Positions 5,030-56,407 of a DNA stretch of 64,000 nucleotides are shown in pieces; positions within the stretch are counted from its first letter, which is position 1; each line of letters starts with the position of its first letter. The translations under genes were made by a program, and so were the position numbers. This DNA comes from Phoronis australis. Taxonomy: Eukaryota; Animalia; Phoronida. The notes beneath the pieces were generated by a model that saw only the letters and a list, made by a program, of their open reading frames with translations, ran no database searches and was not told where the DNA came from. Location of the stretch: the NCBI GenBank assembly GCA_002633005.1, contig NMRA01000488.1, positions 160,194-224,193 on the forward strand, in the 5' to 3' direction.

Positions 5030-5075
5030 GTAAACAGGAAGTATGGTGGTTAAAATTTAAAATGGCGCGGCAAGG
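5030..5075. promoter_or_regulatory. Candidate shared RTEL1/TICRR core promoter: ETS-, CHR-, YY1- and E2F-like motifs
   Basis: CAGGAAGT 5035-5042, TTTAAA 5056-5061, AAAATGGCG 5059-5067 and TGGCGCGGCAA 5063-5073 cluster 40-80 bp before the TICRR ATG. Motif match only. Confidence 0.5.
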
Positions 5076-5111
5076 TGTTTGTTTGGTTGTAGGTTAGGTA
5101 GGGATTTAACA

Positions 5112-5870: not shown

Positions 5871-8800
5871 GTAAATTAGTGTACAGTTTTGTTGGTGTGG
5901 GCCTTTATAATAACTGATGAAAATACTTTGCTCTGCTTTGCTTTGTATTGTTTTGACTAGAATGCTGCTTTCTACTGTACCCACTACTGTTTCAAAAAAA
6001 GAAAACTTTTGAGTTGGCCACTTACTGACATCGAGTCAGTCTCAATTAATATTCCTTTCTCCGACAGTTCACAAACATTTTAAGTCTGGTTTACACTTCA
6101 CCTGTTGGCCAACAGGTGGCATGCAGATTAGACTTTAAGATATCTTATATTTCCATGCCGGTTTAAGATTTACAAATTATCGACTGAAGATGTTTTGTGA
6201 ATCATCAATGTGTATTGGTTTGTAATATAACTTAACTTCGAGCATGTAGTTTTTCTACCCAATGTAAGAAGCCGTTTAAATTTGTTGTAGGACTTCTCTT
6301 GCATGGCAGCTATGACAGAAGCTCTTCAGAATCTCCAAGGTGCTGTTGTCCCTGTAAATGCGCTGCTTCAGTTGCAACGCAGTAATCAGCACCTCCTGAC
6401 CCAGTTACTATCCTCATCAACCAACCAATCAACAGGGGACAACAACTTGCTGTCTGTTTTACCGGCGTCGTCCATTTTGAACTTTTACCTGCAAAACTGT
6501 GCCCAGTTGACCGTTGAGGGCTTGTTGATTCGAAATGGTCGTCTGTTAGGTAGCTGATTTATTCTATCAGTTTTCAGATTGTCAGGAATTCTGAAAGTTT
6601 TCATTGAGGTTCATGTGCTTAAATTAATGTGTTTTTCTAAAATGATTCTACTCTTGAGAACTTGTACTATTTATTGTTTCGTAACGACCTGCTATAACTA
6701 GGGTTGAATATTTATTATTACACATTACACATTTCATGTAACTGGTGCAGGTATTTGTTGATTATTATATTTTTAGCTTTAACAACTCTCTTTTAAATGT
6801 GCCTTTCATTATGATTTCCGTTCTTTTCCAGATTGTGGTGGTAAAGAGCTGGCATTTTTGTCTGTGAAATCATTGATTAACAGTGAAAGGTGAGCTACAG
6901 ATTAAGCTTTTTTGCCTGACAGTGAGTCATTGGAAACAACAAAATATGAAATTGTAGAAATTGATTGACGAATCCCATTTCTGCTACATAGTTTAGTTCA
7001 GGTGAACAATGTTCTTGTTCCCAGGGTCTTTTCTAAATGTTCAATGTAACCAATGCTCACTGTAACCAAATCAAACTTCCATGCAATATAGAGCTGGTTT
7101 TCAATTGTGGGATGGAATGTTACAAGAAAGTGATTGTTGTAAACCAAGCACATTGTTTGACTGTGCATGTGCAGCTTTTTACGAAAGAACGAGTAGAACG
7201 ATATGTTTCTGAAGGGAATTCTATGTCACAAACAATAATTAAATAGAAAATGATAATGAAATTTTGTGTCATGATCTGTGTTCAACAATCTGTAGGAATG
7301 AAAAAAATAGAAATGTCATGTGGTTTTTTATTTCAGCTTTGCTAAAAGGGTTCCGAACCCCCCCCCCTAACCTCTCTTGTGGATCCGCCAATGTTGGTGT
7401 GTCTACTTGCGTGCTTGCTTACTTTGTCGGTACTAAAATATATTGAAATATCACCCACATTTCAAGCGATGCACTCTTTGTCAAGGGTGTGCTACAGACT
7501 GCTGAGTACATGCAGTCTGTAGCACACCCTTGACAAAGAGCGCATCGCTCGAAACGTGGGGATATTGCAAAATGGAAAGTTGATCAGGCTTTGGTCTGAT
7601 GGAAATTCTGGTTATGTTGGCGTATCTGTATTGTGTTCATCCTGTCTCATGTTGTTTCGTTGGGACCAGATCATCCTCCTCCCCACCAGATGGCAGCAGT
7701 TCGCAAGATTTAAAGTTGAACATTCGAAGCAGCAACTCGAGGGAAAGAGAAACCAGCTGTTGCTATGCTGTGTGTCATAAAATCTCCAGTGGCCATGCCA
7801 AGGATCCCACATTTAAAATGTTGGCCACTATGGCATATAGTGATGTACCCTATGAATGCTTGTTGTCTTCCCATGTCTACATGTGCTATGAAGATGACAA
7901 GAGGTCCCCGGCGGGGGAACAGAGTTACTTTACGGCCTTGCTACAGAGGCTGGCCAAAAGGAAACTCATTTTAGTAAGTACACCTTTAATAAGACGTTTT
8001 CCTATTGAAGTTAGTTGTTTTTATTTTGGCACATTGTGCAATTTTGAAAGCAATAAAAATAAAATAGGTAGAGGACTGTAGAGAAAAAAATCATATGAAG
8101 ACTTTAAGAGATTTGCTTCTATACAGTGAATTTTCTGTTGTGTGAGGAATGAGGCAGCATATTTAATGATCAAACTGAATTTTCTGGAAATATTCCTGCC
8201 TTGCTATACTTCAGGATTTGTGTTTTATCCATATTAGTTTCAAGATTCTGATTTTGTGTGCTTTTCTCAGGTTCTTGACTTCACTGAGGGCAGCAGCTCA
8301 GTCATGTGCTTATTGCAACCTTTGACCCCTGTCTGTGGCAGTCTGTCTTGTATCAAATCAAGCTCCGCCTACTTGCTTGAGAAGTCCTTGTATTTACCAC
8401 AATCTGTCACCAAGAGTACCGCGAATAGTCTCCAAGAGTTTGTTGAGAAGAGCATCAGTCATATTGTTGGTGATCTACCTGTAAATTCAGGATGTAAGTT
8501 TACAACCCTGCTTCAAATTATTCAATATTTGTGAGGCTAGTGAATGTAAACAATCAAAATGCCGTTGATACGTTGATAAGCGAAATTGTTAATAGCCTAT
8601 AGATTAAATTTAAGATTTGGAAAAAGATATTTCTGTGCAGTCTTATAACACCACTGGCACACTGAACATGAATGAGACTTATCTCCGACCACTTGCTCGT
8701 GATTGATTTAGTGGACTGTACATCATGTGTGGTCTAGTCGGACGAACTGGACAGTGTGAGTGAGAACATTTTGGATGAATATGTGTGGTGTGTGGGAGGA

Positions 8801-17800: not shown

Positions 17801-20752
17801 GTGAGTACTAGGATATTGACAGTGGGTGTGGTCTGAAAATCATTGATTCAGACAAAATTGTTGGTAATTATTTACTGTTGCAATTTGAATAAACCAATCA
17901 GTGCGCTCGATTCACTGACTAGTTGCTGAAATCCATAAACCCAAGTCATTCTTGAGGTTTGTTCTCTGGTATTGAGATTTAGCAGCTGCCTTTGGAGCAC
18001 ATTCTTTTAGGATTTTTTTGTCGCTGCATTCTCACCTGCCGTACAAATGATAAGAGCACTTCTAAAATCCTTTCAAAAGTATGGATCTTATTTTGTGACA
18101 AACTGTTTATGTTACTGCAGTGAAAACACTGAAGACTAAGTCAGTAGCGGAAACACCTGCTCACAAGCAGGTGTCCAACGTGGCACTAAGAAAGTTAGAG
18201 AAACATCAACGCAGTCACACTGCCAGTGAAATGTTGTCGGTTGGAGAGTCGCCAAGGAAACCGGGTAAGATCGCCTTGCTTTTACAATGAGTTTTTTCAG
18301 CTGCCACTCGACTAGACAAGAAGTGTGTGCATTTATGAGGGTGCTAAAGGGCTGTTGTTCTGCAATGGGCTGTTGTGTGGATAATTAAAATGATTGTTGT
18401 GTAAATATTTGTCTTATTTTGATGAGAGGCTGTACCTTGGTTTAAAAGAGTTCATCAAATTTGTCATTTATGGTTGTCAAAAGCTGCAACTTGTGTTTAT
18501 AAATCATAAGTAAATTCACGTACAAAAGACTATCCAATAGTTGGCACATGGATGTCTTTGACGTGCATGCATTTTCATAAAAGAGACAACTGCTCACTAC
18601 TTCAGTGCAAAATGCTGGATAACAGCTGGGTGAACTGAGTATCTCAGGACTGCAAGAGTCACCTTGCTTCATGTGCATGTGAATACATGTCAGATTGTCG
18701 TCATCCCAGATGTCCACGTGTCAGTGGGTTAACGTTAGGCTGGTGTACAAATTCATCTGGTGAATGCGTAATGATTAAAATTCATTCTGGATGGCATTGC
18801 AGTTGTTCTAGGATTTAGTTGTTAATTTGAAAAAAAAATGACCTATGCCAACCTAGGCATCAACCTCAGGATCTCCTGAATACTAGCTAAGCACTCTGGT
18901 CGCTGAGCTATCGAGAATATGTTGGGAACAGTCGTCACATTCCATTTAAAGCTGTCGTAGTTGCTAAGTCCAGTCACTCAGGGATGATAAACGATATGGT
19001 AAACTTCATCTGATGAGTACTTCTGTAAACAAATTGGCTATCGGTGATATTAACTGTCTTGTAAATGTGTGGTAGACACAATGAAAACTACAGCTCTGTA
19101 AGTTTTAAGCATGGTTTGACTCTAATAACATTCTCTTGCATTTAGGTGAGAAGGACTCTCCCAGAGTGCCCCTGATCAAACAGAGATCGTTCTACTCGGC
19201 GGCATTGCAGGGTCTATCTCGCAACATGGAGAAGTACCAGAAGCTAGCGGAGCGCTTCTCAAGACCATTTGCCTCTCCAACAAAGATTATTGCGGACACG
19301 CCCAAGCGACGGGCTGCTGTGAAAAGTGTCTTCTTCTCACAACTTCTATCTAGTCCACGCACAAATGAGATGGGACAGTCATCGACGATGTCATCGATGT
19401 CTTCGCCGTCGGCTCATGTCTATGACGCTCCCCGTCCTGAAATGGATGGAGCAACAACAGCAGAGAACTTGCAGTCTGGTACAAAATCCCTTGCAGCGAC
19501 TCCTAAGAGAAAAGGTCAGCATGTGAAAAAGCTTCTGATGGATTCACCAGTTTACAACAAAGTTGAGAATATCAAAGTTCAGCTCAAAACTCCTGAGAAG
19601 GCGCAGCAGGGTGAGACATCGGATGGTCACGTGTCCAGGCAGTCGACGCCAAGAAGTTGTAATAGTCGTTACAAGCTTCCTGTCGTAGAAACTCCACCGA
19701 AAAACAGTCCAATTTTTGGTGCCAGATTTAGTGGCAAAAAACTTCAAAAGCACTTTGATGCGGTATCAACCGAGGCTGCCTGTAGTGAACAAAAACTGTC
19801 CTCCCCTCTTCATAATCGTAAGTTGTCAACAACAAATGACTCCTGTCCGTCCTGCTCTAAGAGTGCTGTTGTTGAATACTCAGGGAGACAGGGCAATGAA
19901 AAAGAGAACAAGATACAGACAAGGATGTGCTCGTTCACTCCCAAGTCAACAGGTGAGTCGGATGAAGAGCATGATTTCACTCCGCCCATTTCAAAAAAGC
20001 CAAAGCTTAGCAAAACTCCGGACTCTTTCGATTCTTGGCATCGTCGTAAACATCAGTCGCCAAGAGTGAGGAAGAACAGTTCGCACACCACGCCAGTGAA
20101 GGTCATTCCCACTCGGCAAGCAAGTGTGGATGATGAATTGATCATTTCGTTTCCAACATTAGAGAAGCAGGGATTTGATTTGCACGATCCTAAATCAGCC
20201 GAGAAACTCGACAGGAAAATTGCCCGTGAGAAAAGGAGAGAGCAAACAGTGAATTTCCCATTCTACGAAAAACAAGGTTACGATTTACGGAATTCAGAAT
20301 CTGCCGAAAAACTACGAAAAAGAATTCTGTCCGGTGAACAGACCAGTAGCTCTGCTAACTCCTCAAGTGCTAGAAAATCGCTGAGCGATAGTTATTTCTC
20401 ATCGGAGAATGAAGACGTTTTTCTCTCCGGCGAGGATCAACCGTGGGAACCGATACTGCAATCAAATCCTAAACCAACGGTGCTGCGCTTGAAGCGACGG
20501 AGCATCAACGACACGGACAAACCGTCTGCAGATAGTTGCTCACAAGACTCCAATGGTGGTTGCGTTACGAGAACGTTTTCTACAATTCAGTCATCTGAAA
20601 AGAGGAAGAAGTTTTCTCCCTTGAGCACAGGAAGTTTGCATCAGCTGTTGAAATCACCAATGGTGCTCGACAGTAGCAGCGAGAAATTGCCGAGATCAAG
20701 AACAAAGATGGCTGACAGGAATAGTAAATCACGTAGATCTTTATATCAGTGA
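5112..20752 (+). CDS. TICRR: Treslin / TOPBP1-interacting checkpoint and replication regulator (Sld3 orthologue); 18 coding exons, ~1570 aa
   Basis: N-terminal Treslin motifs VVFLID...ALKLLTYF...WGFKFFNS...FEEFE and DFQWTSPDVSSP. Sld3/Treslin domain DFSDEYGLLAYITDSY...YELQVLLHMEL...EEIL...YID. Also KVRRNLF, the TOPBP1-binding CDK sites KSVAETPAHKQ and GESPRK, SFYS, and C-terminal SLHQLLKSPMV. All 17 introns are GT-AG with consistent phases. Confidence 0.93.
6291..6537 (+). CDS. TICRR: TICRR exon 2
   Basis: ttgttgtag|GAC...LQGAVVPVNALL...VEGLLIRN; donor after 6537, or an in-phase alternative after 6549. Confidence 0.8.
6832..6889 (+). CDS. TICRR: TICRR exon 3
   Basis: ttcttttccag|...CGGKELAFLSVKSLINSE|gtgagc; phase 1 to 2. 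Confidence 0.75.
7447..7566. mobile_element. 120-bp palindrome; probable Penelope-like inverted pLTR remnant with a hammerhead-like core
   Basis: Arms 7447-7502 and 7512-7566 are reverse complements (3 mismatches, 1 indel). The right arm contains TTGACAA-A-GAGCG-CAT-CGCTC-GAAA-CGT. Confidence 0.6.
7670..7973 (+). CDS. TICRR: TICRR exon 4
   Basis: Open frame ending FTALLQRLAKRKLIL|gtaagt; the acceptor (accag 7669) is weak but phase-compatible. Confidence 0.7.
8271..8493 (+). CDS. TICRR: TICRR exon 5
   Basis: cttttctcag|VLDFTEG...CLLQPLTP...|gtaagt. Confidence 0.82.
9001..9103 (+). CDS. TICRR: TICRR exon 6
   Basis: ctattccag|...TVEAWTLS...AG|gtaagt; phase 1 to 2. Confidence 0.75.
9217..9424. 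repeat. 104-bp direct tandem duplication
   Basis: Copies start at 9217 and 9321 and differ at one visible position. Confidence 0.9.
9788..9895. repeat. 54-bp direct tandem duplication
   Basis: Copies start at 9788 and 9842. Confidence 0.9.
10299..10408 (+). CDS. TICRR: TICRR exon 7
   Basis: ttttgtcacag|...SDLIDKLQVAYKKE...G|gtaatt. Confidence 0.75.
11433..11645 (+). CDS. TICRR: TICRR exon 8
   Basis: ttgttgtaag|...SRSRAMIERSKTRL...G|gtaggt; phase 1 to 1. Confidence 0.72.
12249..12397 (+). CDS. TICRR: TICRR exon 9 (start of Sld3/Treslin domain)
   Basis: atttttag|DFSDEYGLLAYITDSYSSAI...QAQSIISLVLHF...GPE|gtaggc. Confidence 0.88.
12664..12773 (+). CDS. TICRR: TICRR exon 10
   Basis: ttttcttccag|EYCRSLLSRSIQQTSSYLRKKY...RKEK|gtaaga. 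Confidence 0.88.
13172..13262 (+). CDS. TICRR: TICRR exon 11
   Basis: ctcttcttcag|YELQVLLHMELVS...ELAEE|gtatgc. Confidence 0.9.
13315..13530. repeat. 20-bp minisatellite (YTGTATCTGCAATTTGCAAG), about 11 degenerate copies
   Basis: The periodicity is directly visible and explains the spurious Cys-rich ORF tails here. Confidence 0.88.
13900..14214 (-). mobile_element. 5'-truncated non-LTR retrotransposon 3' fragment (C-terminal Cys/His knuckle region)
   Basis: Peptide HCKCGHHQSYHHIFFKCALSECQRNSLF...LLLKG resembles the CxC...H.FF.C...R..L...LL.G tail of LINE ORF2 proteins. Confidence 0.6.
14224..14303 (+). CDS. TICRR: TICRR exon 12
   Basis: attacag|IARLVTAAFIGSPEALRHFMEEILVD|gtaggt; 80 nt, bridges phase 0 to 2. 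Confidence 0.8.
14697..14888 (+). CDS. TICRR: TICRR exon 13
   Basis: attgcag|YIDISPSLLREIYLELGQDPP...|gtagaa. Confidence 0.87.
16116..16245 (+). CDS. TICRR: TICRR exon 14
   Basis: tatttag|PRRLARHSSVLEAVSQRQIVMP...; two in-phase donors (after 16227 gtaaaa; after 16245 gtgagt). Confidence 0.8.
16796..16862 (+). CDS. TICRR: TICRR exon 15
   Basis: tcttttttcag|KAAADNKDKRITRSATKKKKEI|gtatgt. Confidence 0.78.
17579..17713 (+). CDS. TICRR: TICRR exon 16 (KVRRNLF)
   Basis: gttatcag|DPKLEVKKVRRNLFMG...|gtatgc. Confidence 0.88.
18121..18264 (+). CDS. TICRR: TICRR exon 17 (two CDK sites for TOPBP1 binding)
   Basis: ttactgcag|...TKSVAETPAHKQ...SVGESPRKP|gtaaga. The Thr (18153) and Ser (18249) codons are 32 codons apart, the spacing recalled for human T969/S1001. 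Confidence 0.92.
18847..18913 (-). mobile_element. Degenerate tRNA-derived SINE head
   Basis: The minus strand reads GATAGCTCAGCGACCAGAGTGC...GAGGTTGATGCCTAGG (A box, decayed B box). Confidence 0.5.
19146..20752 (+). CDS. TICRR: TICRR exon 18 (disordered, S/T-P-rich C-terminus; stop)
   Basis: gcatttag|...KQRSFYS...many TP/SP sites...SPLSTGSLHQLLKSPMVL...; TGA 20750-20752. Confidence 0.92.
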
Positions 20753-28500: not shown

Positions 28501-31500
28501 GTTTTGTTAATGAAAAAGTCTCACACCATTAAAGCCCAACTTAAACGGAATTTTGTTATTTCAGATGTATTGGGCTAACCAGGTATTTCTAGCAACGTCA
28601 AAAAAGAAAACGCAAATTCAGTCACGTAAATATAGGCCTGTTAAATGACAGGTGAAGCTGCCCTTTTTCGTGCCATATTGCATCACCGCGAGATCCCAGG
28701 TAAAACAACAGAAGACCGAAAACAGTTGTATTGAATATGGGTCTGAATAGAACACCATTGCGTGCGGGTGTTATTCGCAGCTGTTTGAATTAAAAGGTGA
28801 TTCTTGCAGTGATGTGGGCAAGCCAATATGCCTCACACTTTGTTACATTTCACAATTTATGGCATTAGTGGGCTCAGAGCGATGGTCTTAACATACTGTA
28901 GGAACCAAATTTACAGGTGGAACGTGTTAGATAGGCCTTTAACATGGAAGTTAATAGAGATTACAACAGAATAAGAGAGTGGGGGTCAAATGAGCTGGTT
29001 TTTCTGGTGCAACTAGGAGAGTTCAACTAATTACAGCACTTGCAAAATCATAACTTTTAATTTATGATGTATCACGAGATTACTTGCCATTAAAGATTGA
29101 GATCTAAAGATTGCATTTCCAAACACTGACCCACATTACTAGGGTTAATTCTATCAAAGTCACTTCCATGTCAACCAGACATTCGAGATATGTCTCCATT
29201 ACAGTGAGATAACATAGTGCACACCCCTGGCTAACAACTAGTGTTACTATTATGGTAGAACATATAACATATTTTAACAGCAAGTCTCGTTTTGTGCCAT
29301 AATTTTCATCACAAGAAGTTCCGAGATAAAGCCAGTTTAATATTCAAACTGCTGTCTAGGATGGAGTTTAAAGGTAGGCTTACTATTTTTCATAAGGTCT
29401 TAAAGTTGTTTTATCCAAGTTCAAAGTTTGGCAATTTTAGACCACCCAAACGAACAGGCCATCTCAATTAAATAAATGATTTGAAGCCCAAGTCACGGCA
29501 TGAAATCTTGCATGACAGCCAGACACAAAATTCTCACCTTACTTGGCGTCTGCTCCAAGACATGTCCCTTCAACCACTCTTTTTCCCTCATCTCCTGTTT
29601 GCGTATTTCCTGTTCTATGATACTCACACTGAGATCAGCCATGGGGGTTTCCTTCTCGCCCTCAATTATGTCGAAATCAACAACCGATTTTTCCACATCG
29701 GATTTTACCACCAGTTTCTCACGTTCCTTGGTTAATTGTATGTCTTCCTTCACCAAAGAACTATCTTGAACGGAGGAATCTCCAAAACCACTAGGTGGAG
29801 CTACTAAATACTGCGAAGTAATGAGGACTTCGTGTTCTTTATTGTCCAACTGATCTATTGATTTAGCAGGCATGCACTCATAAGAAAGTCTGTTTGTGTC
29901 CATTTCAAGAGGATCTTTATCCCAAATTTTGCCAATTACCACTGCCTTGCCACTCGGTGCATTGTAAGCTGGCTCCTGGATACGGGCTCTTTCCTCCCAC
30001 AAATACTTTGTTGCTGTGCGAACGTCTTGAAGGGAAGTATTATCTACCTCTCCTAAAAAGCAAACAGGCGGTTCATTATGAATACGAATGCATATTTATC
30101 TTCATTATGAGTCAAAAAAAGATTTAAATATCTGACCTTGCTCGTGGAAAATGTTTGGAATTTTTATCAGTGATCAGGGTACACCTTTCAATTCCCATGA
30201 CCCTGGTGGCTGACTGTAAACTATGAATGTTACATAGTACTTCAGAAAAGAGCCCAAAGTTGACTGACTTCTGGTCCTTCTATCCAGGAAATGGTTCGTG
30301 GGATTCGTATGAAACTTTTCATGCTATGCTGTTCTCTAAAACGCAGTTAAGAATTGTATTTAAAATGTTCTACTTTTGCTTGAGGTATTATCAAAAGTGG
30401 GACTAGTATGAATTCTACGAAAAGCTTAAGTCAGAGAGGCACAAAACGAAATGATAGTTGAGATTACATCTGGAACATTTATGTGAGATTTTGATCAAGT
30501 TACAGATATCATTGTTTTGCTATCATTGTACCTTTCTATGTTGTAAAAAATCAAAGTCTATGAGCCTTCCATTTTAAGAATATACAAGAGCAACACGGAG
30601 CATTGAAATGCGCCCACGAATGCATTGCAAATGGTGTGCTTTTAGGGTTATTTATTTGTATCATAAAAATGGCCACTAGCTGGAGCAAAAACATACAATT
30701 AATCCAAAAACAGGAACATGCCATATTTCATAACATCTGTCAAGGAACTTCAGAGAAACAAAGGAAAACAGAATAAAATGAAATTGCCACTAGTGGGCAC
30801 AGTGTCCAGTGGATCTGCCTGAAAGTCGTCGTCTGTAGTTATCTTCATATAAATACACTTACTAAATTAAGTAAAGATCCTGCAGTGGGTTTAGGAGTTA
30901 CAACTATGGGTGCAAAAAAACTACCACTAGGAGGCGCTAAAGTAGTTAGTCACCATCATCAAAGGTCGTCTTCACACTGAGATGCCAAAAACAAGATTTG
31001 AAAACAGCAAAAATGGCCACTAGGTGGTGCAAAATACCTCAATTCCTTCCAAAAACAGGAAGATAGCGTCATCACACGAATAGGTGGCTATGTTTAAAAT
31101 TTTATGAAAATCTGTTGAGGACCTTTGAAGATACAGAGTTAAACTTAAAAAACTAAAATTGCCACTAGGAGGCACAGCAGTAGTCAGATCTGTCCGAAAG
31201 TCATCGCCATCTGTAATCACCATCATATAAATACACTTGCTAAATTAAAAAAAGGTCCTGAGAACGGTTTAGGAGATACAGCCATAGGCGCAAAAAACAA
31301 AACTGCCACTAGGAGGTGCCACAGTAGTCAAAATCGTCGGAAAATCATCGTCAACCGTCCTCTTTTTAGTAAGCACATACATGCCAATTTTCACAATTAT
31401 CCTTTGAGCGGCTTGGTTGATAAGAGGGGTGGACGCAAAAAACACTCGAAAACAGTAAAAATGGCCACTAGGTGGCGCAAACTACGTCGAATCCATCCGA

Positions 31501-34500
31501 AAACGGGAGGATAGCGTCATCTCACTAATAGGTGCCTACATACCAAATTTCATAAAAATCCGTTAAGGATTTTTGAAGATAGAGGTAAACGAAAAAAATA
31601 AACTTGCCACTAGGGGGCACAGCGGTAGTCAGATCCGTTTGAAAGTTGCGTCGTCTGTTGTTAACATCATATAAATATACCTACTAAATTTCGTAAAGAT
31701 CCTGCGAACGATTTAGGAGGTACAGCAATAGGCACAAAAAACAAAACTGCCACTAGGAGGCGCCACAGTAGTCGAAATCGTTGGAAAATCATCGTCAAGC
31801 GTCCTCTTCATAGTAAACACATATATGCCAATTTTCACAATCATTATTTGAGCAGTTTGGTTGATAGAGGGGTGAACGCCAAAAAAAACTCGAAAACAGT
31901 AAAAATGGCCACTACGTGGCGCAAATTACGTCGAATCCATCTGAAAACAAGAGGATAGTTTCACTTTACTAATAGATGCTTTAATTCCAAATTTTATGAA
32001 TGTAAGTCGAGGACTTCCGAAAATATAGAGGTAAGGGCAAAAAACTAAAATTGCCACTAGGGGGCACACCAGTAGTCTGAGAGGTCCCAAATTCGTCTTC
32101 ATTCGTTGTCAGCTTCATAGGAACACAACTGCCACATCTCATCAAGATCCTGTGAGGGATTTAGGAGATACTGCTGTTGACGCCGGACGCCCGGACAGAC
32201 AGAGGTGACAGCAATATGCGAACGCATATAAATATGTGGGCGCATAAAAATGGAGATAATTTCTATACTTTTGTAGATGTTTGGCTAAGACACAGACTTC
32301 ACAATAAGGTCCTCACATAGAGGGACTTATTATTTCCTGAACATTAGTCAAGATAAACAGTTTAGCACATTTTATGGAGGTAAAAAAACTTTCAACACCG
32401 AAAAGAGGCCAATTCCCACAATCAGTAATGTCTACATTTCAGTTATAAATTCAACTACGTTATTGCTATCAAACACACAATAACGAAATAACATAAATCC
32501 TCATGATTTATTGACATGGCCATTATTTTCATGAAAATCAGGCCTAGGCTGTGACTGGTACTGCTGTAATGATTAAAAATGAAGAAAATGGAATTTTGGT
32601 AATTTAGGTCTGACATGTTTTCGATAAGCAATTGTCATATACAAAAAATGAAAGCCAATGCCCATCACGTCTTTGGCATGGAGTGATTGCATCAGAATTT
32701 ATGAACATAGACAGCCAATATTTTCAACATCAAAGCTAGCTCCATATTTTTCAGACAAACATAAGTTAGAATGATTTAATTTTTGAAATTGAAACAAAGA
32801 AGGGCTCATGCAATGACAAAAATCCAGAGACTGTTTCTAGAGGTCACCATGGCACGAAAAGAACGTGATGTAAACTCAGGGATTTAAGAGCCTATTAACA
32901 GCACACTTTTATCACCATGCGAGAAGGCGTGCTGGCCACTGGGGACAGTCCATCATGATCAATTAGCAACATGACATACCATTGTTCAAACGTAGCTGCA
33001 CTCCTTCAGAATACATCAATGTAGAGTGGCACCACTGACAGCATTTACAGTTTTACCAAATTGGAAATTACAATTTAAACAGGTTTATGTTTTCCTCCAA
33101 TATTATGTGACCCCATAAATGCGCATGTGTAATAAATATCTTTTTATTAGCAGTCACATAAGAACCCAATCAACCACACATTGCAGAAACCAGTTTTAAC
33201 AACCATAAAACAGCTTGCGCTATTGAAAAATGAACTCGTCCAAGAAGGACGAGACTTTTATTTGTCAAGTTCACAAAAACTGTTGCATTCACTTGTTTTA
33301 AGGAACTACTGAGAAATCAATGTCATCAACAATAAGTGACAGGATCTCACAACAGGAACAAGAAAAACAATCCAGAGTGTTGAAATGAACCTTGACTACA
33401 TCTCAAACAGTATGCTTCTAGTAATGTTTAACATTAGTGTCATAAAAATAGTCATTAGTTAGGACAGAACACGTCAATCCCATCCGAAACTTGGAAGACA
33501 TCATCAGCTTAATGAAAAAAGTATTTGCTAAATGTTATGAAAATCTGCCACAGAACTCCAAACATGTAGACACAAACATAAAAAATTAAAATGCCACTAG
33601 GGGGCCCTCAGGTAGTCGAATCGGTCCATCTCGTCACTATCCATTGTCATTTTCATCTAAGTCATATTTGCCAAATTTCATTAAGATCTTGAAAGGGGTT
33701 TAGGAGATACAGCAGCAGGCGCCAGACACTAGGATAAAGGTGACAATAAGAACATACATAATGTATCGTGGCTACACAAAAAGGCTGGCGATTCAGAATC
33801 AATACAATCACTTGCCATCACTACCGAATGAACAAATGAAAGCGCTCCGAGGAGCGACACTTGGCGAAATTAACCAAAAAAACCACGTTAGAGATGACCA
33901 GAAAAGACGACGACAGAGATGATGACAAAGATGACAGCTATGACGACGATGGTGGTGATGATGGACAATGCAAGTTACGATATCATTCATATGACGAACG
34001 TAGATGTCAGAAATCCTTAAGAGATAGGCGGGGATTGAAACGGCATATTGTCCGGCGGTCATGTTCAGTCCCCGGCGGTCCTGTTTTGTGGTGGGGCGGT
34101 CATGTTTTAGTTGCGTCAGTCCCATTTTCTGGTGCGATGGTCCCATTTGATCCCCAAAGGTCCTGTTTTGGGTGAGGCGGTCCGATTTAAGAGGACCGGC
34201 GGTCTTGTTGTTTCTCACCCGTGAATCTGTTCGCATAGCAATCGACTCCACAATCTACTATGATGGGTTTAGTTCACTAAAGCTTCAGATGTAAAATTTA
34301 CTTTGTTGAATATATCTATAGTCATTAAGTGTATGTACTCGTGGTTTTATCACCACTATATTTGTGTACGGCGAAATAACTATAAAAACGGACGTTCAAC
34401 AAAAAATGAAAAGCGATATTTAAGAACAGAAAAATTGATGACAATAGCAAATGATACTCAAAAACCCACAGCACTGAGCTTTTACATGATATTTTTGTTT

Positions 34501-37500: not shown

Positions 37501-40500
37501 TGCGCATACTCCTGTAACAATTAAAAAAACGATTGCAGGCGTTCTGATATACGTTGTACCAGACGTGCGCAGGCCCCGCATGTGGGCCCATTGAACTAAC
37601 CACCTGGAACCATTTTTATGCTTTATTAATAAACGGTTAAAACCGAGCTGAGGAGCTAGAAACCAGGCTGAAGGGTTTAACAGTGTGACCTGGTGGGACT
37701 CGAACCCACGACCTCGAGTAAAGAAAGCGGGCGCTTATCAACCAGGCCACACTACCTCCCCCTGTACCCAAGAGCACTGAATATAAAAACTGCAACTTGT
37801 GATGCTTTGACAATGTTGCGTTTATTCGTTTATGTCTGTGACATGGCTGCTTGCTTATTTGTATTTGTCAGATTATCATACAGAAAGCTTTAAAATTTGC
37901 ATGGAAAATTGTTTTCAGCTTAATATGAATCGCGAATTTGGTTTTCATTTATCAAAATTCTCTTTCGTATTGTTTTTGTGCCGCGACCTCATAAACAAAT
38001 GTATGATGACAACCACAGGGCGACAGACAAGACAAAAGGCTGTAATGCTTTAAGGTGGCGTTTTAACATTCCACTTTCATTTCACTTTCTCGGTTGGAGA
38101 GTAGCATTTGCGAGTAGGGTATTGAATTGAGGCTTTGTACGAAGCCGAAATAACCACACGAAATTGTTTGCTAGACAAGTGTATGAGGAGCATGACAGTA
38201 AGTGCACACATTTAGGTTCATTATGCACTTATAACTGGAATTCACCTCCAGTACTTTTCATTGAACTATTATTTAATATGAAACTTAGTATCATATCAGT
38301 AGGTAATGTTTCACAACTAAACAGTCAACCTTGACTCATGCTATTCTAAAATTGTGCCCACTGCCTTTACTCGTGACAAGTGCGTATCAAAATTCTAGTA
38401 ACAGGTGTAGATTCACATATAAGTGCACGTGCCTAAGCGTGTGCGTACGGTAAAATCTCACCAATTTAGGGCACAATATAGCCTACAAGTGAATTTTTTT
38501 TCGTCATTTTTCCATCAAATTAAATGATTTTCTATGTTCAGGTTTTGTACCACAACTACCAACAAAGTTTTGAAAATTTGTGGGCATCACAACACAGTTA
38601 GAAGCCCTTAAAATTAAAAAAGGTCATTTTGGCAATTATTTTTGACCGAATATTGTGAGATTTTACTGTAATAAGAATTAATAAAATTCAGGTGAACAAA
38701 CTTTCTTCTATTTCTCATAAAAAAGATAGTAAAATTATACAACTTTCCATTTTTTCGTACGCTCATCACATTTGAAATATTTAAGAAAATAAGACGACAG
38801 CTCAGTACATTTTAGATCACAAAAAAGTTAAAAGTTTTTACTCTTATTTTTGTTGGCAAACTTTAACGAAAGAAAATCCTCACGACCAACAGATATTGTA
38901 TGTTGAGCTGACCATTAACCATATTTCCACATGGTTCATAACATAGCCAACAATCTGCGCATATTCAATTAGTACAGTGAAATCTCACCAAGTTCAGACA
39001 AAAACAATAGCCAAAATTAATCGTTTCTTGACACTGCTGTAATTTCTTGAAAAATAGTCTGATGGTACCTATGGTATGGAATTTAATAATAATCTTTTAT
39101 GGAAAAACGAAAAAACGTATCACTTCACTTGTCAGCCACATTGTGTTCTAGTTTGGCGAGATCTTACCATGCAATCACAATGAATCAATCAAGGAAGTTA
39201 TATTCCTTAAGACATTTCCCAACATTTTAAGTCTGCAAGTTCATGAACTTTGAAATAGAATCAAAAGTGCATCCGACAACAGAACAGACTGGCCTGCCAA
39301 ACACTCGGCCAGAGTAGATGTTTGGGAATATCGCAGGATGAGTCAGGAGCATCTGCTTTTGGAATTTGATGCTCGTCGGCTATGAGACAGATCTGATAAC
39401 TTTCAGCTGTACAACATCCCAATCGTATACCATTCAGTACTGTTAAGCTTCGTTTTCAGAAGTGTCACGTGATGCAGTGTTACAGACATAAATAGAAGAC
39501 AGTGTCTTCAGTTCTGATCTAACTTCTTTGTGAGTAGAAATATAAATGAAGGGACTGAAAACAGATCTCAACGACATTAAAAAACGCAACACAATCCGTG
39601 AGAAGTACACATATTCCTGCGTTACTGTGATGTCATGTTGACGGGCGTACAGCATGTACACAGCCCACACCACGGATGGAACGACAGACGTTATGAACAT
39701 GTTGAGCGCCAAAAGGAAGCCAACCTTCAGCGCCATTGTATGGTACTCCTGAGCAACAATTGTCACACCAGGCACAACTCTCGATCTAAGTTTCACAGAG
39801 ATGCTCAAATAGGAGAGCATGACGACAACCATGAGAGCAGCAGTAAAGTATGGCTCCCACTGACTATCTTGCTCTCGCAATTCCCAAGACGGCCATCTTT
39901 TGGCAAGCGATCCTTTCGGGCAGACATAGGATGTCAAGTACCAGGTTTGCTTTATAGTTTTTAAGGCGGCAACTACGATAGCCACCACGACAACTGCCAT
40001 GAGTAATACCCCAACGAATAACTTGTTTTTCAGCACATTCTTCCATTTTGAAATCGTCTGCAGCAACTGCAATATGGCAACCAAGCTAACAATAAGCAGA
40101 GACATTGTCAGACATACGAGACTGAGAAAGAAATAGGTCAAGCAGATCTCTGGCAGATCAGTTGAAACAATAGTAGTGAAGTACAGCAAGGAGTTGAGGT
40201 TGGAGTCCAAGAAGTCACTGGCGGCCATAGTCAAAATAAACCAATTGACAGGCTTCTTGAGGCGGCCTTTACGATTCAGCACAAGGACAATCAACAAGTT
40301 CCCAGTGCCTATTACCACAAGGCAAATGGTGACCATGGCGATGACGCCAATGACAGCATTCATCTCCATGGTAGACAAGAGTAAGGTATCATCATCCTCA
40401 GTTCCATTAAGCCCTGTTGCTTCAGATTTGTTACTAACATTCATTGCAAGTTGCGCAGCTGAGAATAAGAGCCAGAAAAAATGTGAGAATCAGTCTCACG

Positions 40501-43500
40501 CGCCGGGCAATTTATTGCAACGTCTGATTAATCACGTGGCATATGATTGACAGGTATAGGAAACCGTGGTAGCAGTTAGCACTGTCATCAGAAAACAGTG
40601 AAGAACTTAGTCAATGGAGTTACCCAGGTGTCTCTTAAAACTATTTGCCAAATTTCATGAAAATCTATCAAAGAACTCGAAAGTAAACACAAATGTAAAA
40701 AAATAACAACCAAAACTGTCATTAGGAACCACAGCAGTAGTAGAATGCGTCGATCTACTGTCAAGTTAATAGGAATACAATTGCAAACTTTCAAAAACAT
40801 CTTGTAAGGGGTTTAGGAGATACAGCTATAGATATGAGAAAATGTCACGGTTTTGACAACAGTTTGACCCATTTGAAAATCCACGTCAGTCATGCTTTTG
40901 TCAGTAGAAACACATTTGCCAATTTTCATAATGATCCACTGCACGGTTAGGCAAATACTTAAGAAAACAAAAAACAAACAAACTAACAAATAATTAAAAT
41001 GGCCATTAGTTGGTGCAGAATATGTCAAATCCATCACAAAAAGGAAGGGTGCTGTAGTCTTCATAATAAAAACTTGTCTTGCAAAATTTCATGAAAAAGC
41101 ATCAAGGAACTATAAAGTTAAAAAAATTAATTTGCCCCTAGGGGGCACAGCTGTAGTTTGATTGGGTCTGAAACTCGCAGTTATCGTTGTTACCTCCATA
41201 AGAACACATCTGCTTAATTTCAGAAAGATATTGCAAAGAGTAAAAGAGATACATCCATGGATGCAAAAAAAATGCCACTAGGGGGTGCCAGAGTAGTTGA
41301 CGCCCAAAATCAACGTCTGCCTAACTCCGTGGTGCTAAGGAACTATCAGTTTTCTTTGAAATACTGAATTCATGATTGGGATATGCTTTGCAGAATGTTT
41401 GATGGTGACAATGTAGTCACTTGTCAAAACATTCTAACATTTTTGCAGGACAGCGAAACACAACTTATATTTCTGCTCATAATTCTGACACAGTAGTAGG
41501 TGGCACTATTTTCCCACTAGCCAAAGTCTCGTCCATCACTACTCAATCACAACCCCTTGCCCTTCCCATTATGTTCTCTACAGCAGCGGACATCACAGTT
41601 TCCATTAGTTCTAGAGATTAAAAGCAAAATCTTCCCATAGGGAAAGACATACATGACATGCAGTTCAGATGGGTGACTTTTTCACGACACGAATCTGCGA
41701 AAGGGCGCCTTCCTGATTAAATTCCCTACACAAAGGTTACTTTATGGGCTGGAGTACTCTGTGAAAGGGTCAGTCTATTTTTACAACAAAAACTCTTTAC
41801 AGAACGTTTCATACGTTAATTGCTCCTTTAAGCAGTTCAAATGATTTAAGTTGATAAATGAAATTTAATTTGATAAATGAAATTTAAGTTCATGAAATTT
41901 AATTTTACTTAAATGAATATCTTCCCTCGTTCATCATTCTACAGTTGTTTGTCTCCTTGTACATTGCCACTGAGATCTATTTCAACACAGCAGTCTTTTA
42001 GGTGATAATTCTTTGGCCACCTGGAAGGTTAATTGAGAACTGCATTAGCTTGTCTGTACACAGACAATCAACAAGTCGCGTTTCTGGTCAGTCTTCAAAA
42101 CTTGTGTTCCCGCACCCTTCCTTTTCACAGTAATTTATACTGGTAAAACACTCCATGGTATATTTTAGAGTCTCCGTTTCGGGCATGTTTATGGCGTTTT
42201 TCCCATATTATGATAGAAAAAATATCTTTATATACCTACAATCAATTCTGCATACCTATTATACTAATAGTCTTGTACATTATTACTTTATCTTACAATA
42301 AACATCTCAACCACACTCTAGTTTTCCAACTTAACAAACTTAGCTCAAATCATCCCATCAGCAAGATATTGTCCTAGATAAAGAACCACTTTACATGGCT
42401 TAAAACACATTCAACATGCTTACGTTGGGGAAATCAAACTGTCGCATGAAAGCGCAACTAATTCATAAAAGCTCCCAACACTGTCGGTTCTCAAAAACAG
42501 TGGGTATCCAAACTATCCAGCTACACACATAGCCCAATATCCCCAAAGACGACGACGTGAAACCTCACCATTTCAAATGGCGGAATCTTTACATCCTGGT
42601 CTCCTCGACCATTCGACAAGACTCAGCTCATGGATCATAACTATGATACCTTGAGAGAATACAAGTTAACACAGCTGCAACAAGTGTCATGGCAGATTTA
42701 TACGAAAAATTTTAGCAAAATGTCAACATATTATGCCAATACCTCAATTCAGAACTCGTCAACAGAACAATAGTTTCCACGGCTGACAGCTGCCCAACTC
42801 CACTAAAGGTTTCACTTAAATTTTACTAAAATATCCTGGTGTCACCTTTCAACCAGTTCAAATGAGTCATAGCACAAAGTAATGGAGTAAGACTGCCATT
42901 ACAGCACTCCATCATCACTCTGGCCAATGAGAAACTGTGTCAGGCACCTCTGTGTTCAGGTACTCTCTATGTAAATACATAATGAGGGCTGGGAGGCATA
43001 GTTGATTGGATTAAAATACAATACTATTAAGGGCTGTGAATTTGTTTGAGGGGAACAGTCATTCTGGTGGTATTAAAATTTGCAAAATGGTACTCACTGA
43101 GTGTTGAAGGTATTACACCCCATATAAAACACATAAAATGCAGTCATGATGTGGATAAGCAACTATAACCATGATGCACTTTGTGTAACAATTGACGGCT
43201 GTTGTGAAAGAGGGCTCAGATTCAAAAAGGTCTGAGTAGGTGTAAAGGAGCTCTCTTCTAATGGTTAGGGGTGTGAAGCTAGATATTCAACTTTCAAATT
43301 AAACACCTGGCCAATCTGGAATCACAAGAAGAGATACCAGAGGGCACTACATAGCTACCTGATATGACAGGAACTCTGCCCACCACACCTGGGAGACTAG
43401 TCCAGAGGCGGATCTACAGGGGGTTCAGGTTACAACCCCCTGGAACAGGATCAAAAATCAAAATTTAAAAACACATCGTTAGGAAAACGAAATCAGCTAC

Positions 43501-52282: not shown

Positions 52283-55200
52283 TAGAACGAGACCTAATTG
52301 TTTGCGTATACACTTTTGAAAATTGTTCTTAAGGTTATCTCAAACCTTATTTAGTGGTCTCCATTCTAACTTGTATATTAAAAATAAGCTGAGTCAACTA
52401 GTGAAAAGACCCGTTTAGACATCAACTTTTGGCCCGTCGCAACTGATATGGAGCAAATTGATCGGTGTCAAGCGTCAGTTTACACACAACTCACTAACTG
52501 TGGCAAGACGGAAATTGTAGGCTGGAAAGTGTGTCACACATGCGCAGGTTTACAAATCACGGGAGTTGAAAAGACAAAGAACCCGTATTGAGGTCATTAC
52601 ACAAGCGCAGTAGAGATGATCCTTTCCGCATTGCCCCAGTTTCGCGTTTAGACACATAATTGACACGGAGCAAGATGTTTTAGTGCAAATTGCTCTACCT
52701 CAAAAACGGGTAGCAAAAGTTGTCACCGCGGTGTCAACTTGCTCCAGTTCAGTCCCGTTTGCGCACATACTTGCACTGGAACAATTCGTTCCGTGTCAGC
52801 TGATCCGTGTCAACTTCTGTAGTGAAAACAGCACTATGGCACTATCATATATATGCTTTCAGTTTATCCCCAAGCCATAGCCAATATGGTTACCTGGTCT
52901 ACCGTATTACCGGTATTCACCTGGGCTAAAGGTCCTTTGTGCACCAGTTTGGTTATTGGCCAATTAGTGGTTGAAGCCCATGCGCTATACTGATTTTTTA
53001 GAGTTAGCTGTCACTCCAAGTGTACTGCACAGTGGTATAAAGAAAAGGATTTTCAGACGGGTCAAAATGACAACTACAATTTTTAATAAAATTCTTTTCT
53101 AATGAAAATGTGAATGAAGAGTCAAAAGCTTAGGACTAGGCAGAAATGATAAATACGCAAAAATCCAAAATTCAGCATAAAAATATACATCTCAATGAAC
53201 AAATGATAGAATATCAATCTTCAAATCCTCAGTTAAACCAGAAAGATGTGCACACGGCACAATTCAGTATTTGTCAGGAATTTCAGCAATTGCAGTTAAT
53301 TTTGCAAATAAACAGAAAACGACGATTGCACACTTGACTAATTCCACGATGGAATCTCCATTTGTTACACTCCATATTTTCCAAACACGGCTCCAGGGTT
53401 GTTTCATAAAAACTGAAATTTGGTGTTCCATACAACTATTTCTGAATAATAATCAAATTTAACTTTAGCAAAAGTGCAGCCTCAGAGAATATACACATAA
53501 CTTCTTCTTACTAGGATAATTTCTATGAATTATTTCTAGAATGCGATAAGATGATAATTACAATTCAATCATTCACACAACCTTATACCAACTCTACTGA
53601 CAGAGCATTGACACGAACCAACCAGAACATGGCAGATACAAGGTAACTGTAAAGCTAAATCTGCCACTATGAACACGGCGGTAGTCACATCAGAAAGAAT
53701 TTGTCATGTGTTGCGAGCTTTATAGAAACACATCCGCCAAATTTCATGAAGATCTTGCAAAGGATTTAGAAGATACAGTAGTGGATGCCAGATGGACAAG
53801 GGATACCAGAAACGAGATGCTGGACACAAGACGCCGGACACTGAAAACCCAGATTTGCCCGAAGCGTGAGGACGCGAACAAAGATGCTGGAGGCACGTTG
53901 CAGCTGATGTTCTATGAAGTGCTAATGTACTTGCAGTTGCACCTGTCTTATTGCCTACAGATGTAATTAAACAGTAATTTAATACAGCTTTGGGCTATGG
54001 TCTAATTCAATGATTCAAGTATCTTTTTTAAGCAGACGACAGGGTCCTTGATGTCCCATTCCCCTCCGAAAAATATTTAACAACTGTTCGAAATTCTCCG
54101 CATCATGTCCAATTCCCCCACATAGATTGAAAAATTCCCTCGAGGATAGAATCACTTGAACACACACACACACACACAGATTGGCTTCAGAACGTTTTCT
54201 TCACTACAAATATCCAATTCATACGCATGCTACAGTTTACTGTCACAACGGGATAACTGAATCTGTATTTAGTTTATCTGAAGTACAGGGCTGATAATGG
54301 TAAAAATCAACCACTTTCAGACAGTGAAAAATAAGTATTCAAATCAAAAGATTNTAGAACGAGACCTAATTGTTTGTGTATACACTTTTGAAAATTGCTC
54401 TTAAGGTTATCTCAAACCTTATTTAGTGGCCTCCATTCTAACTCGTATATTAAAAATAAGCCGAGTCAACTAGTAAAAAGTCCTGTTTAGACATCAACTT
54501 TTGGCCCGGCGCAACTGATATGGAGCAAATTGATCGGTGTCAAGCGTCCGTTTACACACAACTCACTAACTGTGGCAAGACGGAAATTGTAGGCTGGAGA
54601 GTGTATCACACATGCGCAGGTTTACAAATCACGGGAGTTGAAGAGACAAAGAACCCGTATTGAGGTCATTACATAAGCGCAGTAGAGATGATCCTTTCCG
54701 CATTGCCCCAGTCACGCATTTAGACACAAGAGCAAGATGTTCTAGCGCAAATTGCTCTACCTAAAAAACGGGTGGCAAAAGTTGTCACCGGGGTGTCAAT
54801 TTGCTCCAGTTCAGTCCCGTTAACACACATACTTGCACTGGAACAATTCGTTCGGTGTCAGCTGATCCGTGTCAACTTTTGTAGTGAAAACGGCACTATG
54901 GCACTATCATATATATGCTTTCAGTTTATCCCCAAGCCATAGCCAATATGGTTACCTGGTCTATTATTCACCTGGTCTAAAGGTCCTTTGTGCACCAGTT
55001 TGGTTATTGGCCAATTAGTGGTTGAAGCCCATGTGCTATACTGATTTTTTAGAGTTAGCTGCCACTCCAAGTGTACTGCACAGTGGTATAAAGAAAAGGA
55101 TTTTTGGACAGAGGGTCGAAATGAAAACTACAATTTTTTAATAAAATTCTTTTCTAATGAAAATGTGATTGAAGAGTCAAAAGCTTTGGACTAGGCAGAA

Positions 55201-56407
55201 ATGATAAATACGCAAAAATCCAAAATTCAGCATAAAAATATATATCTCAATAAGCGAATGATAGAATATCAATCTTCAAATCATCAGTTAAATCACAAAG
55301 ATGTGCACATGGCACAATTCAGTATTTGTCAGGAATTTCAGCAATTGCAGTTAATTTTGCAAATAAAGAGAAAACGACGACTGCACACTTGACTAATTCC
55401 AAGATGGAATCTCCATTTGTTACACTCCATATTTTCCAAATACGACTCCAAGGTTGTTTCATGAAAACCGAAATTTGGTGTTATGTTCCATACAACTATT
55501 TCTGAATAATAATTAAGCTTAACTTTAGCAAAAGTGCAGTCTCTGAGAATATACACCTAACTTCTTCTTACTAGGATACTTTCTATGAATTATTTCTAGA
55601 ATGCGATAAGATGATAATTACAATTCAATCATTCACACAACCTTATACCAACTCTACTGACAGAGCATTGACACGGACCAACCAGAACATGGCAGATACA
55701 AGGTAACTGTAAAACTCAATCTGCCACTATGAACACAGCGGTAGTCACATCAGAAAGAATATGTCATCTGTTGTGAACTTCATACAAACACATCCGCCAA
55801 ATTTCATGAAGATCTTGCAAACGATTTAGAAGATGCAGTAATGGATGCCAGATGGACAAGGGATACCAGAAACGAGATGCTGGACACAAGACGCCGGACA
55901 CTGAAAACCCAAATTTGCCGGAAGCGTGAGGACGCGAACAAAGATGCTGGAGGCACGTTGCAGCTGATGTTCTATGAAGTGCTAATGTACTTGCAGTTGC
56001 ACCTGTCTTATTGCCTACAGATGTAATTAAACAGTAATTTAATACAGCTTTGGGCTATGGTCTAATTCAATGATTCAAGTATCTTTTTTAAGCAGACGAC
56101 AGGGTCCTTGATGTCCCATTCCCCTCCGAAAAATATTTAACAACTGTTCGAAATTCCACGCATCAGGTCCAAAAATTCCCCCACACAGAGTAAATAAATT
56201 CCCTTGAGGTTAGAATCACACACACACACACAGATCAGCTTCAGAACGTTTTCTTCACTACAAATATCCAATTCATACGCATGCTACAGTTTACTGTCAC
56301 AACGGGATAACTGAATCTATATTTAGTTTATCTGAAGTACAGGGCTGATAATGGTAAAAATCAACCACTTTCAGACAGTGAAAAATAAGTATTCAAATCA
56401 AAAGATT
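52283..56407. repeat. ~2.06-kb direct duplication joined by a single N
   Basis: Copy 1 is 52283-54353, N is at 54354, and copy 2 is 54355-56407. The copies are colinear with scattered substitutions and small indels; each contains a HINE monomer remnant and a (CA)n tract. Confidence 0.95.

Follow-up and report, generated by a model that had tools for sequence, protein, structure and literature searches.

A CTCF-consensus site in each monomer of a Helentron-type (HINE) element of Phoronis australis

Introduction

Can the internal tandem array of a transposable element supply a genome with CTCF sites and, if so, for whose benefit are they kept? The question was raised by a sequence-only reading of 64,000 nt of Phoronis australis DNA (contig NMRA01000488.1, positions 160,194 to 224,193; hereafter the window), in which a Helentron-type element was described as a phased battery of CTCF motifs and as a possible mobile insulator or boundary cassette. 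Tandem DNA with CTCF motifs is known from the DXZ4 macrosatellite, a single non-mobile locus. Transposon-borne CTCF motifs have been described in vertebrates, in lamprey hAT/Gypsy elements (PMC5504073), zebrafish non-autonomous DNA transposons (PMC7182764) and mammalian SINE B2/ERV (PMC7786948). These cases differ from the present one in that the available text of the three sources describes no Helentron and no multi-site array within one element; the CTCF-enriched zebrafish families, unnamed in the source text, could include HINE-type elements. The term CTCF occurs 0 times in the available text of the oyster HINE paper (PMC7492417). No report of a Helentron-CTCF association was found in the literature searched, within which CTCF sites in a Helentron-type element appear undescribed, as the sequence-only reading had supposed.

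Materials and methods

Sites were scored with a CTCF matrix approximating JASPAR MA0139.1, whose vertebrate origin counts against the CTCF reading. Five sequencing runs supplied the read data, of which X5 was Hi-C and the other four carried no library label. Copy number was derived from the raw reads of run X5 alone; the summed contig depth of X1-X3 was rejected as a copy-number measure.

Results

Positions 30584-32250 on the minus strand are a non-autonomous Helentron (HINE)-type element, composed as follows.

30584..32250, minus strand: whole HINE-type element (5′ end 32250, 3′ end 30584), from read edge, depth and termini
30591..30605, minus strand: 3′ palindrome, eroded; its stem of 6 bp includes two G.T pairs and its loop has 3 nt (by eye)
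30608..30617, minus strand: 3′ subterminal inverted repeat, one partner of the repeat pair
30984..32077, no strand assigned: A-B-C higher-order repeat of 444 bp, 2.4 copies, 82% matches
32179..32203, minus strand: short, eroded microsatellite-like tract, GTCY/GTCC type on the element strand (GACR-like forward), from sequence
32216..32245, minus strand: 5′ module, with subterminal inverted repeat (subTIR) 32236-32245 and inner inverted repeat 32216-32229; T5 terminus at 32246-32250

The left edge lies exactly at 30584, where 5,889 reads stop, as do 363-375 contigs per run. This 3′ edge is sharp and T-rich on the element strand; the flank outside it is A-rich on the forward strand and so T-rich when read on that of the element. 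The 5′ end consists of T5. The right-end junction was also present in a second sample (contig from 32227). Among the 15 listed of 4,349 joints, none was an empty site, which would show insertion into a TT or T-rich target without duplication. Depth was about 9,000 over the element versus 8.5 in the flanks, and read depth gave a copy number of about 1,000 genome-wide, implying motif-bearing monomers in the order of 10,000. The subterminal inverted repeats (30608-30617 and 32236-32245) form a 17-nt, 82% pair in which a 10-bp core is perfect. The inner inverted repeat pairs with 32232-32245 in 10/14 positions and folds weakly (z −1.39 versus shuffles), and the microsatellite-like tract is too short for detection by TRF. 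Three old monomer types (A, B and C) make up the array of 11. With a longest reading frame of 121 codons, stop to stop, the element was counted as non-coding. The boundaries and monomer number of the sequence-only reading hold (11 same-strand cores, read edge at 30584), and its Helentron-type assignment is supported by the subTIRs, inner inverted repeat, tract, high copy number and sharp edge. The terminal hairpin that it described is an eroded palindrome in the window copy, with folding no stronger than that of shuffled sequence (z −0.17). An older copy at about 33370 retains the complementary arm.

Like Cg_HINE of Crassostrea gigas (PMC7492417) and DINE-1/HINE (PMC4067079), the element combines a 5′ subTIR, inverted repeat and GTCY-type microsatellite with a short, non-coding central array of 140-180-bp monomers, a 3′ subTIR with a palindrome (eroded in the window copy), and T-rich termini. 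Oyster arrays mostly have at most five monomers (PMC7492417), whereas that of the window has 11, in a three-type higher-order arrangement.

Each monomer carries a CTCF-consensus match on the same strand.

30670..30688, plus strand: CTCF-like site 1, type A, shortened monomer, 15.0 bits
30784..30802, plus strand: CTCF-like site 2, type B, 17.6 bits
30921..30939, plus strand: CTCF-like site 3, type C, shortened monomer, 21.7 bits
31014..31032, plus strand: CTCF-like site 4, type A, 21.6 bits
31159..31177, plus strand: CTCF-like site 5, type B, 20.2 bits
31303..31321, plus strand: CTCF-like site 6, type C, 19.3 bits
31462..31480, plus strand: CTCF-like site 7, type A, 25.7 bits
31604..31622, plus strand: CTCF-like site 8, type B, 24.1 bits
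31747..31765, plus strand: CTCF-like site 9, type C, 23.4 bits
31906..31924, plus strand: CTCF-like site 10, type A, 15.5 bits
32051..32069, plus strand: CTCF-like site 11, type B, 23.6 bits

All 11 scored 15.0-25.7 bits (p 2.4e-6 to 7.8e-10) on the vertebrate-derived matrix, and their cores (30673, 30787, 30924, 31017, 31162, 31306, 31465, 31607, 31750, 31909 and 32054) fit the IUPAC consensus of the sequence-only reading with 0-2 mismatches. Shuffled controls had been proposed there for comparison: 1000 dinucleotide shuffles of the whole element yielded 0.5 matches on average and never more than 4, compared with the 11 of the real sequence, and none of 3000 shuffled monomers attained 15 bits. 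The A-tract noted before each motif was found at every site (7-10 A among the 12 upstream bases). Site 1 is weakened by a change of the window copy itself at 30680, where 94% of genomic reads have A; in this family form it scores 20.9 bits. The HINE family accounts for 14/18 sites of at least 15 bits in the window. The term phased battery was not borne out: cores are spaced 114, 137, 93, 145, 144, 159, 142, 143, 159 and 145 bp apart, regularly in the last seven intervals only, and phasing was rejected as evidence since 140-180 bp is the usual HINE monomer length (PMC7492417).

Between types, identity of the 19-bp site was 0.73-0.75, versus 0.51-0.62 for spacers and 0.54 for shuffled spacers, in agreement with the three monomer types of diverged remainder described earlier; within types it was 0.93-0.95 versus 0.71-0.89. 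Differences between types fall mostly at positions that CTCF tolerates, and for the same number of randomly placed differences the probability of an equally good score was 0.006 for B and 0.008 for C, or 0.015-0.07 for the core only. Type C has the minor letter at matrix position 12, a point against the CTCF reading. A spacer-only tree grouped A, B and C monomers across elements (supports 100/99, 85/87 and 88/86), so that the types are older than the separate elements. Among family reads (n = 83,512), variation of at least 15% occurred at 1/32 motif positions versus 32/184 others (Fisher p 0.025; G/C bases only, p 0.009; without CpG, p 0.023), the better conservation of the motif that had been predicted, in a test biased towards conservation because mapping at 80% favours motif-matching copies and B/C cross-mapping inflates depth at the motif. 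In these reads a 26-bp block outside the motif (31506-31531) varied no more than the sites did.

Older relatives of the element lie in the window.

33358..33782, minus strand: older member of two monomers (A+B), both ends present; the B site persists (18.8 bits at 33591) and the A site is lost
40640..41300, minus strand: fragment of an older array, with monomers B, C, A and B followed by a truncated C-like one; sites persist at 41132 and 41272, that at 41000 is weak (9.1 bits) and two are lost
53650..53800, minus strand: single old B monomer, site lost

The last of these is duplicated at 55710-55850 through a local 1.8-kb duplication. The site is kept in 3/8 older monomers, where neutral decay at 20-25% divergence predicts 1.8-2.8. 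Since older copies lose the site at the neutral rate, constraint is likely to act on source elements rather than on host loci.

A CTCF-like site is likewise present in HINE arrays of metagenome contigs, homologous as well as unrelated ones. In L010, a complete homologous HINE from a different sample (spacer homology 1 in 30,000 shuffles), six sites scoring 24-29 bits match those of the window element in position and polarity. In the homologue L054 only 2/5 aligned monomers have the site, which is thus optional; the other three hold an ATGGC...GCCAT-type inverted repeat scoring below 0 bits on the CTCF matrix. The G-rich box of one oyster CL1 monomer scored only 6.9 bits, and from this and L054 it follows that HINEs also spread without CTCF sites. 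The site has the reverse orientation relative to the element in L004, L057 and L116. Exact family-specific patterns had no match in viral or metagenome contigs, and BLASTN of the element against the 173 loci retrieved gave none at E<1e-3. Following a BLAST and motif-count screen, 51 genome-contig and four viral matches to a paired-motif pattern were treated as chance. A search with a GPCR-like reading frame returned no homologue.

Discussion

We give roughly an even chance to the reading that this HINE of about 1,000 copies keeps a strong CTCF-consensus site in each monomer, probably since source copies that recruit CTCF stay open and mobile, while inserted copies probably let their sites decay. 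The element would be mobilised in trans, by rolling circle, by an autonomous Helentron; host CTCF would bind the monomer sites, and its recruitment may benefit the element through protection from silencing or through accessibility. Young insertions would place 5-11 same-orientation predicted CTCF sites 142-159 bp apart and, the free gaps of 123-140 bp being shorter than a nucleosome, full occupancy would give an open, nucleosome-poor patch. Where young copies affected host genes as insulators or boundaries, this would be a by-product, co-opted only occasionally. Judged from sequence, the element thus likely spreads candidate CTCF landing sites for its own benefit. The host was placed among the lophotrochozoans, and in an annelid the CTCF motif dominates open chromatin (10.1101/2020.05.07.078311).

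The GC-rich box may instead be kept for another role, as a quasi-palindrome or hairpin, a site for a YY1-like or other zinc-finger protein, or a Helentron Rep signal, with the CTCF match as a by-product. We consider this unlikely but still a serious competitor. At the type A site a perfect 5-bp stem encloses a loop of 3 nt, the reversed sites of L004, L057 and L116 are expected of a palindrome-derived motif, further monomer blocks are conserved too, and in 3/5 monomers of L054 the inverted repeat at the homologous position has YY1-like half-sites. A hairpin was nevertheless weakened when tested: the stem is complete at only 2/11 sites and is broken, with no compensating change, in B, in C and in the family form of site 1, the stem-breaking letters in B and site 1 remain allowed by CTCF, and the L010 sites of 24-29 bits are non-palindromic. 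YY1 cannot account for the B and C sites, which have no upstream ATGG core.

That the ancestral monomer had a CTCF-like site by chance, preserved without function by copying and gene conversion (which can homogenise short similar patches), appears quite improbable. The 11 sites are not independent, since all monomers come from one ancestral unit; homologues can do without the site; and non-allelic gene conversion is known among Helitron copies (PMC4384637). This neutral account is already weakened, however, as simulated neutral divergence to a pairwise identity of 0.59-0.66 left all three types at 20 bits or more in 0.1-0.6% of runs, the differences that did arise fall on tolerant positions, and type-specific letters persist inside the site, which conversion would erase. 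The proposal of the sequence-only reading, that copies are true insulators or boundary cassettes maintained by the host at their loci, is very unlikely in our estimate. It would fit the 14/18 share of strong sites, the some 10,000 motif-bearing monomers (order of magnitude, read depth) and the junction shared with a second sample, and a precedent for transposon-borne tandem insulator-protein sites exists in the gypsy insulator, which packs 12 Su(Hw) sites into 350 bp (PMC7168160), although gypsy is an LTR retrotransposon with Su(Hw) instead of CTCF, tight spacing and experimentally shown function. Against host maintenance at most loci stand the neutral loss in older copies (3/8 kept) and the site-weakening change at 30680 in the window copy. 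In the available text of the respective sources, moreover, echinoderm boundary CTCF motifs have no orientation pattern and are not enriched at loop anchors (PMC13317027), and annelid motifs are mostly single and at promoters (10.1101/2020.05.07.078311).

Selection on source copies, as preferred here, bears on the purpose of the conserved boxes in HINE monomers. HINE/pearl-type elements are the dominant dispersed 'satellites' of molluscs and further marine invertebrates. A wider and more doubtful possibility is that their nucleosome-length internal repeats have been shaped, more than once, into real CTCF-site batteries that would supply a large share of strong sites (14/18 in the window, about 10,000 genome-wide) and might act as mobile multi-site barriers, shielding the element and reshaping host domains. 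If the sites are bound, spiralian genomes would have in one transposon class a major source of CTCF sites with rapid turnover. Echinoderm (PMC13317027) and annelid (10.1101/2020.05.07.078311) motifs are without the orientation logic of vertebrates, and, given binding, about 1,000 insertions that range in age and in number of sites would offer a natural experiment on whether invertebrate CTCF insulates. Most of these sites would escape repeat-masked or uniquely mapped ATAC/ChIP analyses.

Rolling-circle elements likewise spread clustered host-factor sites in Caenorhabditis, as Helitron-acquired HSE clusters (PMC6927752), and in D. miranda, as the MSL sites of ISX/ISY Helitrons (PMC4384637; PMC7168160). 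Both differ from the present case in the factor concerned, in ChIP-shown occupancy and, in the available text, in having no nucleosome-length arrays with one site per monomer. Internal tandem repeats of Helitrons are also tied to insulation in the PATC barriers of C. elegans, which differ in being CTCF-independent, with a 35-bp unit and a signal gained after insertion (bioRxiv 10.64898/2026.08.08.743475). In the window family, by contrast, the site is present in the family majority and decays after insertion.

Structure and copy number of the element

The main element fits the layout of a HINE (non-autonomous Helentron), as defined in PMC7492417 and PMC4067079, when it is read on the minus strand. 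The following features were recognized:

5′ end of the main element, minus strand: T5 terminus
32236-32245, minus strand: 5′ subTIR with inner inverted repeat
Between the 5′ module and the central array, minus strand: GTCY-type tract
30608-30617, minus strand: 3′ subTIR, inverted
3′ end of the main element, minus strand: 3′ palindrome, eroded (z -0.17)

The Helentron-type identity proposed by the sequence-only reading was retained: the main element is a HINE by structure, with its 3′ palindrome eroded in this copy to the point of folding no better than shuffles. The 5′ hairpin folds weakly (z -1.39). An older two-monomer member (33358-33782) has both ends and retains the complementary palindrome arm.

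Copy number was estimated from raw Hi-C reads (run X5, approximately 4% of the run) mapped at 80% likeness. Read depth was 8.5 (range 5-12) in the unique flanks; it rose to 9,061 at the left end of the element and reached 28,100 at most within the array. A sharp edge was found at 30584: the match ends there in 5,889 reads, and in 363-375 contigs of each older run, and the sequence beyond is unrelated A-rich DNA. Allowing for the uneven coverage of Hi-C, which makes these numbers rough, there are approximately 1,000 elements (four end bins: 500, 978, 1,070 and 1,278); for the A site and for the B site, read depth corresponds to 4,000-5,000 copies each. No empty insertion site was present among the 15 joints listed of 4,349. 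A small separate repeat at 30304-30404 has a depth of approximately 150, versus 8.5 in the flanks.

CTCF-like sites in the array

Eleven matches to the CTCF consensus were located in 30584-32250, all on the plus strand and with 0-2 mismatches each, as had been claimed. Successive sites are separated by 114, 137, 93, 145, 144, 159, 142, 143, 159 and 145 bp. All 11 score 15.0-25.7 bits with the CTCF matrix JASPAR MA0139.1. The dinucleotide-shuffled element (1000 runs) gave on average 0.5 matches and at most 4, and none of 3000 shuffled monomers reached at least 15 bits. Because the monomers share a common ancestor, the 11 sites do not count as independent events; what is informative is how unlikely the chance origin of even one such site is. 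The A-tract reported before every motif was also confirmed (the 12 bases ahead of each site include 7-10 A). The monomers, of three types, are ordered A B C A B C A B C A B; TRF detected a 444-bp unit in 2.4 copies.

Constraint on the site

Between monomer types, identity was 0.73-0.75 for the 19-bp site and 0.51-0.62 for the spacers (shuffles 0.54); within types, values were 0.93-0.95 and 0.71-0.89, respectively. In an unanchored alignment the site was the best 16-column window (0.83; next best 0.65). The types differ mostly at positions that leave the matrix score intact, and randomly placed differences did equally well with P 0.006 (B) and 0.008 (C); the same test on core positions only was weaker (0.015-0.07). 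In type C, matrix position 12 shows a minor letter.

Family variation was assessed with 83,512 reads on 31435-31650, counting all 36 variant rows at ≥15%. With the caveat that mapping favours reads matching at the motif, 1 of 32 motif positions was variable versus 32 of 184 outside (p 0.025; p 0.009 for G/C bases, p 0.023 without CpG). The sole variable motif position is a CpG transition (18%). The motif is more conserved than the rest of the monomer, in line with the sequence-only reading, but 31506-31531, a 26-bp non-motif block of type A monomers, shows no variant at ≥15% across the family, CpG included. This block is a second candidate functional site. Judged from these comparisons, the candidate CTCF site is constrained at the family level.

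Decay after insertion

In older copies within the window, a site of at least 15 bits was kept in 3 of 8 independent monomers (33591, 41132 and 41272); one of the other five scores 9.1 bits and four have lost it. At 20-25% divergence, 1.8-2.8 retained sites would be expected from neutral decay. Monomer 55725 was dropped because it duplicates 53665. At approximately 3% of positions (6/216, in 31435-31650) the main copy departs from the majority of reads; outside that stretch, a change at 30680 lowers site 1 (type A, 30670-30688) to approximately 15 bits from the 20.9 bits of the form present in 94% of reads. A spacer-only tree clusters A, B and C monomers each across separate elements, so the types are old. 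The putative site appears spared through long divergence of source lineages and decays once inserted, a combination suggesting that selection acts on the element and not at the host loci.

A local direct duplication of approximately 1.8 kb (52529-54353 and 54601-56407) carries an old B monomer twice.

HINE arrays in other samples

A paired-motif scan of metagenome contigs yielded 118 loci from 42 of 64 parts; being built on the motif itself, it gives existence and not frequency. Sixteen loci are AT-rich with at least two same-strand sites of ≥15 bits, 130-175 bp apart. We infer that the source organisms are animals. L010 is a complete HINE (subTIRs, inner repeat, microsatellite) with six sites of 24-29 bits in the polarity of the main element, and with the motif masked, its spacer shows homology to type A (1/30,000 shuffles). 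L054 is likewise homologous (0/30,000 shuffles) and carries the site in only 2 of 5 aligned monomers, the other three having an inverted repeat in its place (-8 to -13 bits). L004, L057 and L116 were recognized by eye as HINE-like arrays of 160-165 bp, L005 being similar; sites of the former three reach 25-28 bits and run in the opposite direction relative to the element, with T instead of A ahead of them in L004 and L057. In one oyster CL1 monomer, the G-rich box scores 6.9 bits. The predicted site thus recurs in HINE arrays yet is optional, and both A-tract and polarity are variable.

L004 and L057 also contain inverted AARATGGC...GCCATYTT pairs (2 and 6 matches, respectively), which resemble YY1 sites. 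Five other loci (L074, L078, L083, L086 and L092) hold 38-bp tandem arrays of 9-20 copies with a strong CTCF-consensus match in nearly every unit, a denser and different kind of CTCF-like array.

Possible explanations

The most likely reading, given an even chance, is that the site is a real CTCF site, kept because source copies would gain from recruiting CTCF; a partner element would presumably mobilise the HINE. At 123-140 bp, the free gaps between sites fall short of nucleosome length (147 bp), and full occupancy of the array would therefore give an open chromatin patch. Another protein, or a palindrome, may instead keep the site, the CTCF match being a by-product; this is possible at clearly lower probability, and for the palindrome, just 2 of the 11 sites have an intact 5-bp stem, with breaks uncompensated. 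Neutral inheritance of the site is unlikely, as neutral simulation at 0.59-0.66 identity kept all three types at ≥20 bits in 0.1-0.6% of runs.

Equally improbable, if not slightly more so, are copies maintained by the host as insulators, and an insulator role is doubtful for most copies. According to 10.1101/2020.05.07.078311 and PMC13317027, CTCF in invertebrates may act otherwise than in vertebrates. Full-text searches of a largely open-access literature found no description of Helentron/HINE repeats carrying CTCF sites. Close precedents in kind are the Su(Hw) site array of gypsy (PMC7168160), Helitron HSE clusters (PMC6927752), ISX (PMC4384637), TE-borne CTCF sites in lamprey (PMC5504073) and zebrafish (PMC7182764), and CTCF-independent, Helitron-derived barriers in C. 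elegans (bioRxiv 10.64898/2026.08.08.743475).

Genomic setting

Judging by ORFs, the main element is likely intronic to a large gene on the minus strand. An exon of this gene matches proteins of Lymnaea, Mya, Saccostrea and Dreissena (four named of six matches) at 26-34% identity, over approximately half of the exon or short stretches. The adjoining treslin gene matches a scallop protein (one match); Treslin/TICRR was identified at 5061-5879 (Pfam Treslin_N, E 6e-16), and a second ORF at 19109-20752 is likely a later exon of it. By these protein matches the host is a lophotrochozoan, probably a mollusc. HINE-related pieces across 30584-55850 all share one orientation, on the strand of the surrounding minus-strand ORFs. 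A single-exon, rhodopsin-type GPCR-like ORF (39443-40489, minus strand; 7tm_1 E 2.4e-5, below cut-off) adjoins an old HINE array, and a homologue search with it found none. An isolated CTCF-like site of 18.3 bits (29785-29803) lies 800 bp away from the main element, within a coding exon.
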